Origin: Synechococcus sp.
GTDB lineage: Bacteria; Cyanobacteriota; Cyanobacteriia; Thermostichales; PCC-7336
NCBI GenBank assembly: GCA_051439425.1
Contig: JBFRWD010000120.1
Location: 1 to 57,810, forward strand
Direction of reading: 5' to 3'
DNA: 57,810 bases
Position 1 is the stretch's first letter. Every line of letters begins with the position of its first letter. A model generated the notes under the pieces. The model saw only the letters and a program-made list of their open reading frames with translations. It had not been told where the DNA came from and ran no database searches. Shown one piece after another: positions 25,401 to 38,311 of the stretch. The translations under genes were made by a program, and so were the position numbers.

Positions 25401-25913
25401 ATGTTTATATCCCATGAAGACTGGCAAAATAAAAATGCTATTGATATTTGCCGAGATGGCACCATAATAAATAGATTTCGTGTGAATCAAAAGAATTTTC
25501 TCATTTTGTCGACAGGAGAATATGACTTAAATCGACATGTAGATATGAAATCAGCTGACCTAAGACATACATTTGGACAAAGTGGATATATAGAGATACT
25601 TCGCTTCGTGATTGGTGATAATTTGTGTTTTATCCTTGAGGAGAAAGAATCAACATGCAATGATGATATTTACGAGTCATTAAAGGCAGGATTGACAGCC
25701 CGTGAGCTACAAATCGCTACACTAGTTGCCCAAGGAAAATCGAATAAACAAATTGCTAAGCAACTACATATTAGTGAGTGGACTGTAGCAACTCATTTAA
25801 GGCGTATATTCCTCAAACTTGATGTCGACAGTCGGGCTGAAATGGTATTCCGCTGTTCTTCTCTAATTTCGATTGGCATACTCTCTGGTTCTATTGAAGA
25901 AGATAAAAATTAG
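25401..25913 (+). CDS. LuxR/GerE-type HTH transcriptional regulator
   Basis: LTARELQIATLVAQGKSNKQIA..LHISEWTVATHLRRIF.KL.V.SR; no receiver domain. Confidence 0.9.
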   Translation: MFISHEDWQNKNAIDICRDGTIINRFRVNQKNFLILSTGEYDLNRHVDMKSADLRHTFGQSGYIEILRFVIGDNLCFILEEKESTCNDDIYESLKAGLTARELQIATLVAQGKSNKQIAKQLHISEWTVATHLRRIFLKLDVDSRAEMVFRCSSLISIGILSGSIEEDKN

Positions 25914-26065
25914 CAAAATTTCTACGAACCTCCTGAGTATTACTCAGTGATCCTAAAATGTTGATGGGTAAAAAATTTGCCCAAAACGGTAGCATTAGGC
26001 AATTTCAAAAAACGGTACTCTGACATCGAGTTGACTAACAACAGCCTCAATATAACCCTCACAGA

Positions 26066-26536
26066 TTACAAAAAGTAATCTGCAGTGTCGATCTGGTGGG
26101 AGAATTTGCCGGGAAAAATTCTACGATATTCTCTCTCTCTCGCCTTTAAATCTGTTCCTGCTGGAAAATAGTACACTTTAACTTTATAGTCTGAGATATT
26201 GGCCTTAAGATGGGTTAAGCACCAACGATGTTGACCAATTCTTGAAGCGAGATTCACAGACTTACCTACATATACTCGCTCCCCTATCGATCTTGGGTTA
26301 GATCTGATCCGCTTAAAAATGACGTAAATTCCGTGGTTTGATACCTTACTTCTCTTAATCAGTCTGGGTGCATCCGCTAATGGAATAAGCTTTGTTTGCT
26401 TAATTATATGCCTATTTTTATATGCTTTGAATCCGTCGGAGTCATACCCGTCGGAAATGCCATACTCATCAAATAACCTTCTACTAGAATAATTTTCTGG
26501 CATCATTTTTCTGAACTTACTTACGGTTCTAATCAT
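26066..26536 (-). CDS. GIY-YIG nuclease family protein
   Basis: GIYVI...VYVGKSVNLASRIGQH and downstream Glu (ARERE). Confidence 0.8.
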   Translation of the reverse strand: MIRTVSKFRKMMPENYSSRRLFDEYGISDGYDSDGFKAYKNRHIIKQTKLIPLADAPRLIKRSKVSNHGIYVIFKRIRSNPRSIGERVYVGKSVNLASRIGQHRWCLTHLKANISDYKVKVYYFPAGTDLKAREREYRRIFPGKFSHQIDTADYFL

Positions 26537-26824
26537 GTTCTTGCTCCAAGATGTTTGCGGATTATAATGGATGCTTGCTGACGTCAGCGCACTGACTAAT
26601 AATGAATACTAAAAATATCTGATTGCACTATTTTGATGTTTAAATCTAATCAAATAGTTGGAAGACGGCTGTTGTGATTTTCTGTATGGGTGCCATTTAT
26701 ATTTTGATGTTACCTGCCTAAGATTGTATTGAATTAAGTGCCGATCCTGATGGAAGTCTATACCTCCGATGAAGCATGATTGTAAATGAGAACCTCAATT
26801 TCTATTCCCACGTGGGGTCAATAT

Positions 26825-28255
26825 TTAGGGACATGTTGGATAGTGACGCCTAGTTGGTATATGGGATCGACTCAATACTAGATGTTTGTCCATGTAGATC
26901 CTTAATTCTCGACCAATGTTGGCCGCTCTAGGATTGGCTAGATGGCCCAACATCATCGTTATGAATTCTCGGCTAGCATTTATAGCCTCTAAGGCCCATG
27001 GCTTGAGAGCTCCACTTGTCGTGGTGATAATATCTCGAGGGTCTGGAGGAGGAAATACTCGATGCTCTAGTGGAAAACGATGACTACCATCGAATCCGAA
27101 AAATCGTATCCAGACGATAGGATGACTGGCCCCCGCCCCGCCCCACTGACGTTCTATATGCGCTTCTGAATATGAATCTTGGATAAGGTGTAATGCTTCA
27201 CCCATCATCTCAAATGATGTTTTTCGTGTTCTGGCTCTTAATGAGCTGCCATGTAGGCTATGTAAGCGATCTCGTATCTCTTTCAACGCATTTCTCTGAG
27301 ACTGGCAGGTTCTCCGTCTAATGGCATGACGCGCTTGCTGCTTTGGGTCGAAATGCTTGAGCGGATTCCCAGAATCTACACGACGTACGCCCTTCCTCAA
27401 TGCGTTCCGATCGGCACTTGTCAGACCTGACACACTTGCTGCGGCATCTCTAGTCAGGCGCTCGTGACCTTCCGGTATGCCGAACACTCTGCTGTGGATT
27501 ACATATGGATCTCCAGTATCTATGAATGCCGATCTCGTTCGTAAAGTGGCCCTGCGTTGCAATGAATGGGTCGATAATGCTTGTTTCCTATCCAATAGTG
27601 GCCCCTGATTGAGGCTCCCGTAGTACCGGGCTTTCTTTAGCGTACGTTGCATGCGTGCCAAGGTCTTTCTTCCCAAGATTCCGTCGACTGTGAGACCCGT
27701 TTTACTCTGTTGCCAGACGGCAATTTTCCTTGCTACTTCTTCAGAGGTTGGAATAGCTTCGCTAAGCCCGAGAAGAGCATGAATACTTGATTGGTATGCT
27801 TTCCAACCAAGAGACTGGCTATTTCTATGGTTTTGGGCGATCGCTTTTTCCAAGTCGATATTGGACGGTTTTCGAGGTATTTTGATGATTGCATAGCAGT
27901 TCCCTTTAGGAACTTTTCCTCCTGTTAATGCTTGCTGCTCTAAACTGCAAGCAAATCTTGGAAAGAAGGAGATGATTCCATTCGGAAATAGCTTCTTGGA
28001 CTTAGAGATACGGAAACGAACATTATAAAAATCGTTATTGATTGTTCTGGCTAACCTTAGCCTCTCAGATCCAGCTTTTACACCATAAGCCCGACCTGCA
28101 ATACCCAACAGAGTATCTCCTTGCCTGATTTGGTAAAAGCTACCTGGAGTCGGATATGTTCGGAGGGTAGCTCTATCAACCTCGTTGGTTTGAGCCAAGA
28201 GTTCAATACTGCTTTGGCCACTTAAGTCAGTTGGTTTCGTTTGTACGACACTCAT
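26825..28255 (-). CDS. LysM + peptidoglycan-binding + Zn-hydrolase (phospholipase C/P1 nuclease/HET-C-like) protein
   Basis: YQIRQGDTLLGIA (LysM), WQ..GLTVDGILGRKT (PG-binding), HERLT / HFD / GEALHLIQDSYS.AH. Confidence 0.7.
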   Translation of the reverse strand: MSVVQTKPTDLSGQSSIELLAQTNEVDRATLRTYPTPGSFYQIRQGDTLLGIAGRAYGVKAGSERLRLARTINNDFYNVRFRISKSKKLFPNGIISFFPRFACSLEQQALTGGKVPKGNCYAIIKIPRKPSNIDLEKAIAQNHRNSQSLGWKAYQSSIHALLGLSEAIPTSEEVARKIAVWQQSKTGLTVDGILGRKTLARMQRTLKKARYYGSLNQGPLLDRKQALSTHSLQRRATLRTRSAFIDTGDPYVIHSRVFGIPEGHERLTRDAAASVSGLTSADRNALRKGVRRVDSGNPLKHFDPKQQARHAIRRRTCQSQRNALKEIRDRLHSLHGSSLRARTRKTSFEMMGEALHLIQDSYSEAHIERQWGGAGASHPIVWIRFFGFDGSHRFPLEHRVFPPPDPRDIITTTSGALKPWALEAINASREFITMMLGHLANPRAANIGRELRIYMDKHLVLSRSHIPTRRHYPTCP

Positions 28256-36892: not shown

Positions 36893-36935
36893 GTTTAATT
36901 CTCCTAAGTCTTTGCTTGAATAAACAATGGTTGGC

Positions 36936-38081
36936 TTAGAACTCTCCGGGATATCGAATAACAATCTCTAAGGGAGCTTCTACCTGCAAATGCACGGATT
37001 TTTGAGTGCGTCTTGTAGGGGAGAACGATGGTCCATCTTCTCGCTCTTCCGAGAGGTGTTGAGCAAGGACGGGGTTTTCTACTACCTTTGATGCTGCTCG
37101 GTACAGTCGTTGGGGCAGAAATTTGAGGGCAGACTTCTGAGATCCAGAAGAGTTCGCGCCAACTCGCTTGGCAAGTGCTGGTAATGCCTGCAAGCATTGC
37201 TGGTCGTTCAGCAACTGTAAGGATCTCTCACATGCCCGCATCAGTTTGGCGCACCAAGCCAGATCGACTGAACTGTCTCCACATTCCAGACTGGGAGCGA
37301 CTACCCGCCTGGCAGTTAAGCCAGCCAGGATGAGCGCCATTGGTTTCGTACCGATGTCTGCAAATAGATTGACCGTATCTTCAAGGACGACAGATACGTT
37401 CATCCCTAGGCGGGCATATCTCGCTACCATTACCGAATAAATCTTTAATAGATTTGCAGGCTGGTGATGGGCTAGCGAGCGGTCTACTTGTACATGATGG
37501 CCATTGTGTTGCTCTTCATGAGAGCTCTTGCGATGACCATTCTGTTTCAATTTTCGTATGCGTCTCCGATTTGTTGCATCCGATAAGTTTGGAGAATAAA
37601 CGAGATGTTGCAAGTCGAGATCGCGACGAATTCCTTTTACGTCTAAGGCACTATCAATCGCCCCAAGAAGCTGCCCAAAATAATCCTCTGCGTCCGTTAT
37701 TCCTAACGTTTCAATGATTCCTTTTCTGAGCAGGCTGAGATCGACCCCCCATTCAGAGAGGACATGCGATAGATCTGCGTTTAGATCCCCAGGTTCATAT
37801 TCTTGATTGAACTTTTTTGCATGCTCACGTTCAAATTCCTCTTCAAAGTCTCCATTAGATTCGTCGTCAATAGGCTCCTCAACATCATCCTTGAAATCAG
37901 TCACCGTTTTCCCCTTAACATCTCTTGAGAACGCATCACCTAAAATATTTGATCCGTCAAACAAACCAGATTCTAGTTCGTGATTACAATCGAACAAAGC
38001 GCAATCTAATTCGTCAAATTGGATAGTATCAGGCTTATCCTTGATAGATTTCTTTTGTTTGAGCTTAGATGGATGCTTCAC
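36936..38081 (-). CDS. hypothetical protein, divergent paralog of 35972-36892
   Basis: GTG start, acidic N-terminal third, blocks colinear with the downstream gene. Confidence 0.8.
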   Translation of the reverse strand: MKHPSKLKQKKSIKDKPDTIQFDELDCALFDCNHELESGLFDGSNILGDAFSRDVKGKTVTDFKDDVEEPIDDESNGDFEEEFEREHAKKFNQEYEPGDLNADLSHVLSEWGVDLSLLRKGIIETLGITDAEDYFGQLLGAIDSALDVKGIRRDLDLQHLVYSPNLSDATNRRRIRKLKQNGHRKSSHEEQHNGHHVQVDRSLAHHQPANLLKIYSVMVARYARLGMNVSVVLEDTVNLFADIGTKPMALILAGLTARRVVAPSLECGDSSVDLAWCAKLMRACERSLQLLNDQQCLQALPALAKRVGANSSGSQKSALKFLPQRLYRAASKVVENPVLAQHLSEEREDGPSFSPTRRTQKSVHLQVEAPLEIVIRYPGEF

Positions 38082-38295
38082 GATACACCTACCCTGAATG
38101 AACTCATGTAGAAATAGCTTCTATGAACTCTTGCGTTTTTGTTGAATAACTAAACTGACATCCGAAGTTGATATCTCTATTGATCTTTTTCTAAATGGCA
38201 AGGTTCGAATTGCCTGGAAACCCTTTCTTCATTCATTAAAGTAATGAGAAAATAAATAGAGTACAAGTCACACGAGTTGGGTCATTAGAGTGTGG

Positions 38296-38311
38296 TAACT
38301 CATTTGAGGTA
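38296..38311. promoter_or_regulatory. 7-2-7 inverted repeat, candidate LuxR/NarL-type operator
   Basis: TAACTCA-TT-TGAGGTA (6/7 arm match) ~215 nt upstream of the first operon gene. Confidence 0.35.

Follow-up and report, generated by a model that had tools for sequence, protein, structure and literature searches.

The window analyzed here, a stretch of 57,810 nucleotides from Synechococcus sp. (contig JBFRWD010000120.1, positions 1 to 57,810), carries on its minus strand a row of 11 co-directional open reading frames (ORFs), g1 to g11, which runs from position 38081 down to position 26066. A plus-strand ORF for a LuxR-type regulator, g12, at 25401-25913 faces the end of this row. We demonstrate that the row holds a real operon which has spread horizontally and whose arrangement recurs far beyond chance. 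On sequence comparison, five of its proteins (g2, g3, g4, g6 and g7) belong to no described family. Furthermore, extra genes inside or just after the core of this operon are enriched for acidic amphipathic N-termini like the leader of g2. As a tentative reading, which we prefer to each of the others considered below without regarding it as established, the operon would encode a LuxR-controlled cytoplasmic machine that processes or loads leader-tagged client proteins for antagonism. All ORFs of the row and the facing LuxR gene are present at the coordinates at which a preliminary description of this DNA had placed them. The tight spacing which it reported for g1 to g9 is likewise found, with distances from an overlap of 47 nt (g7/g8) to a gap of 110 nt (g4/g5), and wider gaps follow at the end of the row (190 nt for g9/g10 and 288 nt for g10/g11). 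The first eight genes are:

36936..38081, minus strand: g1, 381 aa, a diverged g2-family paralog whose N-terminal half is acidic and which contains the leader-like stretch IQFDELDCALFD
35972..36892, minus strand (the ORF extends to 36964): g2, a 306-aa bipolar protein with an acidic N-terminal half, a Lys/Arg-rich C-terminal half and a C-terminal CxxC
34661..35944, minus strand: g3, a 427-aa HEXXH protein with the motifs H192-E193-x-x-H196 and E234-x-x-x-D238
32686..34614, minus strand: g4, a 642-aa core protein
32084..32575, minus strand: g5, 163 aa, encoded in the hypervariable slot that separates g4 from g6; residues 1-41 share 44% identity with the slot protein of locus L002
30922..32007, minus strand: g6, a 361-aa signature protein, predicted to be all-alpha, with a mean column identity of 77% (38 sequences)
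29921..30886, minus strand: g7, a 321-aa core protein with a C-terminal W..FWY motif
28936..29967, minus strand: g8, a 343-aa DUF4438 protein (PF14505, E 7.6e-51; PF20999, E 9.9e-40)

For the comparison of gene order, 80 loci (type 1) were taken around g6 homologs. Many of them are cut by contig ends, and 50 loci with at least 6.5 kb upstream and at least 4.5 kb downstream make up the well-flanked set. According to organism names and general taxonomy, the 80 loci belong to six phyla (Cyanobacteriota, Pseudomonadota, Desulfobacterota, Acidobacteriota, Myxococcota and Armatimonadota), and the carriers include cultured strains such as those of Aromatoleum and Roseateles. The core order g2-g3-g4-(slot)-g6-g7-g8 is found on one strand in 47 of the 50 well-flanked loci. 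Here, g2, g3, g4 and g8 are present in all 50 loci, g7 is present in 47 and a LuxR gene in 48. When the window proteins were searched against all 80 loci by tblastn, g6 was detected in 80, g8 in 73, g4 and g7 in 71 each, g3 in 69, LuxR in 67, g2 in 60 and g1 in 8 loci, while at a threshold of 1e-5 g5, g10 and g11 were found in none of them. The identity to the window proteins amounts to 59-84% for g6 across the six phyla, from cyanobacteria to myxobacteria, mostly to 52-69% for g3, to 39-70% for g4, to 28-61% for g2 and to 24-50% for g7. The distribution is patchy, as g6 occurs in one of the 41 nearest genomes, namely the window's own, and, within the phylum, in 8 of 401 genomes sampled.

Genes flanking the operon in the window are not kept with it; three of the four tested are absent from all 80 loci. 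The idea that the row is a chance run of unrelated hypothetical genes has the lack of annotation in its favor and nothing else. It is refuted by the recurrence of the same one-strand order in 47 of 50 loci from six phyla and by the non-conserved flanks, and we regard its probability as negligible. A core order kept across phyla together with variable terminal cargo, the pattern which the preliminary description had named as support for its interpretation, is thus what the loci display: trypsin-like, VanY, Ntox5 or M35-like genes stand in other loci at the places where the window has its own terminal genes. No paper on this operon was found; supplementary tables, which lay outside the search, may hold expression data.

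The bipolar proteins make up the g2 family; g2 itself gave no Pfam match above cut-off. In an alignment of 31 sequences (A5) the family starts with an N-terminal helix of the consensus M..FE.DVMDDL.YD.AEGPA, which in g2 corresponds to the acidic amphipathic leader MYPTDVMDDLLYESDEG. This leader is followed by a low-complexity block of D/E and F/Y, by two further conserved acidic-helix motifs (DTDEFFRRL and ADGADEFEA.DEL), by a hydrophobic IDAAAPVIAG element and then by a long half rich in K/R and A, whose C-terminus often reads CPxC...RGPVTI.IRGR. There are one to three tandem copies of the family per locus, often two or three. The A5 profile also matches g1 (E 2e-4), which makes it a remote member, and the eight loci with a g1 match have it at the upstream-paralog position with 24-33% identity.

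In 20 of the 80 loci at least one extra same-strand ORF lies between g6 and g8, and other loci have such extras just downstream. Many of these ORFs start like g2, e.g. with MYERFVDEVLDDLEQEFD, MYDRFLDEIFDELAEEYD or MYQAFDSDLMDNLFYY. We scored N-termini by a net charge of -8 or below in a 30-aa window near the N-terminus and used opposite-strand or far-flank ORFs as controls. By this test, 7 of 26 extra same-strand ORFs after g6 are acidic as compared to 8 of 291 controls (Fisher p 4.5e-5), and the same holds for 13 of 105 ORFs within 3 kb downstream (Fisher p 4.8e-4 against the same controls). The acidic-amphipathic pattern F-h-x-acid-h-h-x-acid-h is present in 62 of 106 g2 ORFs, 8 of 131 associated ORFs and none of the 291 controls (p 7.4e-5); in the window's own genome it occurs in 3 of 5057 ORFs. 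A stricter pattern, M-Y/D/S-x-x-F followed by the acidic part, gave 30 matches in the loci, which comprise 23 g2 and 7 associated same-strand ORFs, and none elsewhere. In the window's genome a narrow hidden Markov model (HMM) of the g2 leader detects g2 only.

With respect to the proteins behind these N-termini, several ORFs with an acidic N-terminus match a Pfam family above cut-off. These are trypsin-like peptidases in L006, L050, L052 and L078 (the latter on the other strand) and a VanY D-Ala-D-Ala carboxypeptidase in L042. In L016, g7 and g8 are separated by an ORF for an Ntox5 toxin, again a match above cut-off, which keeps the hydrophobic spacing of the leader while being less acidic. 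Matches below cut-off on acidic-N-terminus ORFs are an M35-like peptidase (L005) and an OmpA-like protein (L059), and an M35 aspzincin gene with no obvious leader is found 3' of the cluster in L002. A recurrent small cargo family (A6) with a PD...EV(D/E) pattern has no relative in the PDB. In Zhang et al. 2012 (PMC3482391), Ntox5 domains are listed among the toxins of PVC-type injection systems with a metallopeptidase. A sublineage of six loci (L050, L052, L053, L054, L061 and L062, from Syntrophaceae, Thioalkalicoccus, Thiogranum, Thiocapsa, a Chromatiales metagenome-assembled genome and Candidatus Thiodiazotropha) has extra genes between g8 and LuxR. A protein of about 190 aa occurs in this interval in four of the six loci, a trypsin-like peptidase in at least four and a class-I methyltransferase-like protein in five.

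The two genes at the corresponding end of the row in the window are:

26825..28255, minus strand: g10, with a peptidoglycan (PG)-binding module and a C-terminal domain (residues 237-476) that contains the motif HLIQDSYSEAH
26066..26536, minus strand: g11, 156 aa, a borderline match to GIY-YIG (22.2 bits, cut-off 22.6)

Relatives of g10 were met in a second type of cluster, found by tblastn against plasmids and by a search of the phylum, in which the g6-like protein is only about 35% identical to g6. These type-2 loci come from a Paraburkholderia megaplasmid (L083) and from four genomes of the window's phylum (L084, L085, L087 and L088). Their g2-like genes are accompanied by a g3-like gene (A2 profile, E 1e-82 to 1e-91), by a gene for about 480-650 aa and by the g6-like gene, and a LuxR gene is present in L083, L084, L085 and L088, whereas none was detected in L087. 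DUF4438 is missing from the type-2 clusters, and L083 and L085 have an M20 peptidase and an amidohydrolase in its place. The C-terminal domain of g10 and the C-terminal part of a 444-aa gene product, encoded directly 3' of the g6-like gene in L084, share 44% identity (E 3e-53), and a 57%-identical copy of this L084 gene stands at the same place in L088. The domain family is rare, with 19 proteins including that of the window, and has no relative in the PDB. Since it recurs right after the g6-like gene in type-2 clusters, g10 is, on its sequence, a probable exchangeable cargo. Among the labels given to g10 earlier (LysM, PG-binding and Zn-hydrolase), PG binding holds in part (PG_binding_1 at 19.7 bits against a cut-off of 23, and a fusion to PF01471 in 6 of the 18 other family members), whereas LysM and Zn-hydrolase were detected by no library.

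The type-2 locus L085 also contains a leader of its own, [WRL]LFE[AT]P, which occurs four times and each time at the N-terminus of a same-strand ORF, i.e. of one g2-like protein and three downstream proteins. Because this different leader is common to the g2-like protein and the downstream proteins, leader and clients seem to change together. One of the leader-bearing proteins, L085:16039, is matched by g11 at the level of the GIY-YIG motif only (E 0.033), and this is the sole support for g11 as cargo. Homologs of g11 are found in none of the 80 type-1 loci at 1e-5 and in none of 87 loci at E values up to 1; a match to the PADLOC candidate PDC-S14 has an E value of 5.2e-6. The DNA-attacking cargo proposed earlier thus reduces to a GIY-YIG call that falls just short of its cut-off and whose link to the system is unproven.

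The HEXXH motif reported before for g3 is seen both in its sequence and in an alignment of 36 homologs (A2). In this alignment H192, E193 and H196 are near-invariant, the sole break being a frameshifted copy in L078, as are E234 and D238 (WHKEIFAD), which form an ExxxD motif 38 residues past HEXXH. The combination of HEXXH and ExxxD is the signature of thermolysin-type gluzincins. An AlphaFold 2 (AF2) model of g3 (predicted local distance difference test, pLDDT, 86.9; predicted template modeling score, pTM, 0.86) consists of a three-helix bundle (residues 1-105), two short strands, the helices with the catalytic motifs and a large helical C-terminal part, and it places HEXXH on helix 188-202 and ExxxD on helix 232-245. 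The predicted arrangement is like that of the thermolysin-type enzymes in that the two motifs lie on separate helices. It differs from them by the N-terminal bundle and the large helical C-terminal part, and g3 has no match in Pfam or NCBIfam; a PDB profile search was also empty. Across the 36 sequences of A2, weak Pfam matches are confined to one sequence each, with no family recurring, and the fold matches of the model are confined to residues 1-105 and to generic helical hairpins or bundles (best Z 10.1, VIA). Judged from motifs and model, g3 is probably a zinc peptidase of gluzincin-like type. A complex prediction for g3 with the first 60 residues of g2 scored 0.00, which is no evidence either way.

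Two observations concern the ends and the integrity of these proteins. Homologs of g3 end in Ala-Ala in 24 of 36 cases (LAA in 10) and in Ala in 31 of 36, while the g3 of the window ends in AVV. Among g6 homologs 14 of 39 end in Ala-Ala, and none of the g2, g4 and g7 homologs does so. These ends resemble an ssrA-type C-terminal degron read by ClpXP, so that g3 and g6 may by analogy be kept unstable. Furthermore, split frames of g3 or g4 homologs were seen in metagenome-assembled loci (L078:5684-6953; L007:6342-7567; L049:6261-7494 and 7584-9351), and these are either decaying copies or assembly errors.

A dedicated HEXXH protein next to tandem paralogs with a conserved leader and a more variable body is also what the leader-peptide logic of class II bacteriocins and of ribosomally synthesized and post-translationally modified peptides (RiPPs) would produce. 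In a pathway of this kind g1 and g2 would be precursors, g3 the leader peptidase, g4, g6, g7 and g8 new maturases and the extra enzymes, the proteases among them, tailoring enzymes. The pathway-specific LuxR regulator agrees with it, as do the methyltransferase, M20 and amidohydrolase genes of some variants. However, the supposed precursors of 290-450 aa have motifs conserved over their whole length, the same kind of leader is found on folded enzymes and on a toxin, the clients are proteins of about 300 aa and folded enzymes, and neither a known maturase family nor a transporter, such as a peptidase-domain ABC transporter, was detected with Pfam and NCBIfam. We therefore regard a RiPP- or bacteriocin-like pathway as quite improbable.

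The preferred reading, a machine for leader-tagged clients, can be put as follows. The locus would be an operon under LuxR control that moves horizontally and encodes a soluble multiprotein machine of the cytoplasm whose clients are marked by a short N-terminal acidic amphipathic helix. Obligatory clients would be the one to three bipolar proteins (g1, g2) with their acidic front half and very basic back half, and optional clients would be encoded inside or just after the core, i.e. trypsin-like and M35-like proteases, VanY, Ntox5 and PG-binding hydrolases like g10. As the processing peptidase, g3 might cut e.g. after the invariant ...AEG/P of the leader. The proteins g4, g6, g7 and g8 would form a conserved scaffold that binds or stores the clients, and the slot protein g5 would act as a specificity adaptor. 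What results would be a set of effectors for antagonism which does no harm to the producer before processing or release. Our inferences from these features are the binding and cleavage steps, the assembly and release, and the target of this machine. Regarding the assembly or conflict system of the preliminary description, the core order with variable cargo has thus been confirmed, the DNA-attacking cargo, a PIN assignment of g7 (see below) and a structural role of the core have not, and the assembly or conflict function itself is inferred.

Several points weigh against this reading. The charge threshold and the patterns were set after examples had been seen, and the narrow g2-leader HMM does not tell associated ORFs and controls apart (Mann-Whitney p 0.096 and 0.15) and finds only two non-g2 ORFs in the loci (in L015 and L012). 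An extra ORF with an acidic N-terminus is present in only 17 of the 80 loci, so that most systems would run with g2 alone. In the window itself, g10 shows no acidic leader, and the N-terminus of g11, RRLFDEYGISDGYDSDGF, is only vaguely leader-like. The catalytic part of g3 was matched by no solved zincin (Foldseek best E 0.21). The row includes no recognisable immunity gene and no recognisable membrane protein, ATPase or export component, which leaves open by what route cell-wall enzymes would reach a wall. Among the scanned neighbors no immunity family was recognised either, in a scan that was not a systematic search. Moreover, conflict systems do not usually contain proteins as highly conserved as g6, g3 and g8.

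In another reading the operon would serve a housekeeping or developmental intracellular structure, with g2 binding polyanions (DNA, RNA or polyphosphate) or scaffolding a condensate, g3 to g8 maturing g2, and the neighboring enzymes being incidental. The protein g2 is a block polyampholyte with a histone-H1-like half rich in K/R and A, the remaining 63 of the 80 loci have no extra gene with an acidic N-terminus, g6 is as extremely conserved as one may expect of a polymer or scaffold, and the core proteins all look soluble. Such a structure does not account, however, for leader-like N-termini being enriched on extra genes that stand at fixed positions and encode hydrolases or toxins, nor for the g10 domain being met again after the g6-like gene, and a presence in 2% of the sampled phylum genomes misfits a housekeeping role. 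We consider such a structure rather improbable.

Whether the operon belongs to a known class of mobile or defense elements was analyzed with family libraries. The preliminary description had seen no NTPase, transporter, phage, secretion or defense marker, and none was found in Pfam, NCBIfam, PADLOC or PHROGs; for g1 to g7 these libraries gave no credible match at all. PADLOC 2.0 (5027 models) yielded zero families for g1 to g8 and g10, and its LuxR matches span the helix-turn-helix region only. With regard to phages, PHROGs was empty for g1 and g3 to g8, no relatives of g6 were present in 2.9 million viral contigs, and none of g8 and g3 in 50,697 phage records. By eye and with no dedicated predictor, no convincing membrane span or signal peptide was seen in any row protein. 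The top 19-residue hydropathy means are 1.7-1.8 with one stretch per protein, and the stretch of g3 is a buried helix in the model.

Proteins that all look cytoplasmic fit self-killing and would explain why no export part is seen. The strongest rival to the preferred reading is anti-phage abortive infection, in which the core would detect the infection by means of the slot protein as sensor and g3 would free leader-masked effectors (proteases, wall hydrolases, nucleases and the basic half of g2) that kill the infected cell. The patchy horizontal spread (1 of 41 near relatives and 8 of 401 phylum genomes), the hypervariable slot protein, the swappable effector-like genes and the weak match of g11 to the defense candidate PDC-S14 are in line with this. 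On the other hand, none of the 5027 PADLOC models recognizes a core protein, and the core is much more conserved than typical defense genes. A dedicated LuxR activator and an Ntox5 toxin, which is known from injection systems (PMC3482391), point outward. Abortive infection is thus unlikely in our view, and it is followed in rank by the g2-based intracellular structure and, at a lower level, by the RiPP-like pathway.

The remaining core proteins were characterized by alignments, models and profile searches. In an alignment of g4 homologs (A4), a conserved N-terminal part of about 460 aa with a Cys cluster is followed by a variable middle and a conserved C-terminal segment. When A4 members were scanned singly, no recurrent Pfam family emerged, as was also the case for the members of the g7 family, and PDB profile searches were empty for g4 as well as for g6 and g7. 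A relationship between g4 and g6 was considered and rejected, as hhalign finds none. The gene in the slot between g4 and g6 differs between loci, or the slot is empty. In L003 it encodes a protein with cadherin domains, in L030 one with collagen repeats and in L002 one with a transthyretin-like sandwich, while coiled-coil proteins occupy the slot of many other loci. Many slot proteins have a common short C-terminal helix, and those of the window's clade have common first ~40 residues. Slot proteins of the cyanobacterial clade (g5 residues 48-66; L016, L038) also contain a hydrophobic stretch of about 15-19 residues after the N-terminal helix, which in g5 is CLFVYVILQIQNIVCNFVG (hydropathy mean 1.73) and may be a membrane anchor or a buried element.

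For g6, 802 relatives were obtained; among the 120 listed none has a Pfam domain, and their names, where given, are "hypothetical protein". The AF2 model of g6 is all-alpha (pLDDT 72.9) and finds no fold analog (best Foldseek E 0.41; in VIA a best Z of 5.6, for a hairpin of 50 residues), and the ESM Atlas holds no usable match for g6 or g7. In g7, six acidic residues are at least 90% conserved in the alignment A3 (D22, D58, D101, D112, E137 and D162). The earlier assignment of g7 as PIN-like is tentative, as none of the 37 family members hits a PIN model of Pfam and neither the PDB profile search nor the Atlas yielded a usable match. In contrast, the DUF4438 assignment of g8 was borne out by both Pfam domains (PF14505, 171.8 bits with a cut-off of 24.9; PF20999, 135.7 bits with a cut-off of 27). 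Residues 13-298 of g8 align with Thermotoga maritima TM1086 (PDB 3n99/3dcl, E 6e-59), a structural-genomics protein whose function is not known; the literature search found nothing on DUF4438, and for TM1086 no paper gives a function. DUF4438 exists apart from the operon in Thermotoga maritima, the only positive among 14 control genomes, and occurs in 15 of the 401 phylum genomes, of which only 3 have g6. Genomes with DUF4438 and no g6-like gene are G044, G068, G071, G074, G080, G097, G112, G121, G156, G346 and G350, all from the same phylum and from other classes. As DUF4438 is found outside the operon and missing from type-2 clusters, g8 is a recruited accessory and not a signature of the system. 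In five cyanobacterial loci (L019:6063-6689, L029:11185-11820, L030:11999-12652, L036:12519-13172 and L038:12519-13172, all minus strand) a gene for a Uma2-family protein, a putative restriction endonuclease, lies between g7 and g8 on the strand opposite to the operon, which looks like a selfish insertion.

A profile search of 1.84 billion representatives gave 771 g6-like entries with E values up to 1e-3, of which 436 reach 1e-10 and 68 reach 1e-30, many of them being fragments. Among the 50 longest g6-like matches five have Pfam domains (PKD, HhH twice, DUF2853 and AAA). A third, more distant cluster type is represented by L082 (Tolypothrix sp. PCC 7712 plasmid, 128593-153450) and L086. Type-3 proteins, which are among the entries of the profile search, are 540-800 aa long, and their g6-like part is the C-terminal one. 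In L082 and L086 the corresponding protein of 615-625 aa is encoded beside an S8 peptidase and a protein with PG_binding_1 and coiled coil, and both loci also hold several large hypothetical proteins, one with a TIG domain. The possibility that g5 and g6 together are a split type-3 protein was rejected, because type-3 N-terminal parts match no g4, g5-slot or other core profile, so that the analogy is one of position only.

Cargo of bacterial microcompartments and encapsulins is targeted by short terminal amphipathic peptides. The operon resembles these systems in that unrelated enzymes with a short amphipathic end helix are encoded beside highly conserved non-enzymatic proteins, and also by g2, which with three leader-like acidic helices looks like a multivalent scaffold; binding of the leader to the core is putative. 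It differs from them in that no cluster protein matches a Pfam shell family, the g6 model is all-alpha with no fold match, the cargo consists of hydrolases and toxins and not of a metabolic pathway, and a HEXXH protein is obligatory. With these differences in mind, one may imagine a non-viral cytoplasmic protein particle or depot, loaded with toxins, that is neither a microcompartment nor an encapsulin, a tailocin or an injection system, although we rate this as improbable to about the same extent as the g2-based structure. Here, the body would be built from g6, possibly together with g4 and g8, with g2 as a multivalent scaffold. Proteases, cell-wall hydrolases and toxins would be loaded by way of the acidic N-terminal helix, which would serve as the signal for encapsulation. 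Encapsulated cargo would need no immunity genes. The slot protein (cadherin, collagen or transthyretin-like, and PKD in the fused type-3 proteins) would be an outward-facing binder of the target, and the loaded particle would be released and attack other cells.

The regulators of the row and the region upstream of it are:

28446..29021, minus strand: g9, a LuxR/GerE-type regulator with a small N-terminal domain (GerE PF00196, E 5.7e-17, 61.5 bits)
25401..25913, plus strand: g12, a second LuxR/GerE regulator, convergent with the row (GerE PF00196, E 1.5e-19, 69.8 bits)
38082..38740, minus strand: the upstream non-coding region of 659 nt with no ORF of 70 aa or more

Both LuxR assignments had been made before and lie well above the PF00196 cut-off of 23.5 bits. 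The N-terminal domains of g9 and g12 match no family, and no receiver or autoinducer domain was detected in them. Of the 48 well-flanked loci with a LuxR gene, 26 have it 3' of the core on the operon strand, 2 have it 3' of the core on the other strand, and 20 have it upstream in divergent orientation. The nearest relatives, L040 and L042, likewise have two to three downstream LuxR paralogs. The upstream region presumably holds the promoter and operator of the operon. It contains one weak sigma-70-like site at 38395-38367, a scan for promoters and terminators gave fewer sites than in shuffled sequence, and a comparison of the sequences upstream of g1, g10, g11 and g12 for a shared operator yielded only short, unconvincing 11-mers.

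In agreement with the statement that most of the first nine genes have Shine-Dalgarno (SD) motifs, SD-like motifs were found 5' of g2 (ATG 36892), g3 to g7 and g11, and none 5' of g1, g8, g9 or the ATG of g10. The start of g2 is most likely ATG 36892 (MYPTDVMDD, with AGGA upstream) rather than TTG 36964, and g9 probably starts at the internal ATG 28931, 4 nt past g8. The G+C content is 0.42-0.44 over positions 24001-28000, which comprise g10, g11, g12 and the spacer before g12, and 0.50-0.55 over most of the window. This low G+C content would fit a recently swapped end with cargo and regulator.

With respect to known conflict systems, the operon is most readily compared with polymorphic toxin systems. 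In these, a conserved N-terminal element precedes interchangeable enzyme or toxin domains. The genes are clustered with a conserved apparatus and spread horizontally in a patchy manner in both cases, and one cargo found here, Ntox5, is tied to PVC-type injection systems (Zhang et al. 2012, PMC3482391). In contrast to polymorphic toxin systems, the comparison of the 12 window proteins with Pfam, NCBIfam, PADLOC and PHROGs brought up no component of type II, V, VI or VII secretion systems (T2SS, T5SS, T6SS, T7SS) or of PVC-type systems. The common element is an acidic helix of about 15-20 residues and not a domain, and the core proteins look cytoplasmic and nearly all lack a family.

Overall, our work describes an operon with five obligatory proteins (g2, g3, g4, g6 and g7) in at least six phyla for which neither a family nor a paper was found, and which may represent an undescribed bacterial weapon or protein machine. 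If the leader acts as a tag, this would be a new way to store, process or deliver harmful enzymes with neither a known secretion system nor immunity genes, and a tag of about 20 residues should then carry any reporter into the machine. The results would in that case bear on interbacterial conflict, phage defense and the engineering of protein compartments. Even if the leader-tag interpretation should prove wrong, the operon is among the most conserved unannotated operons available.

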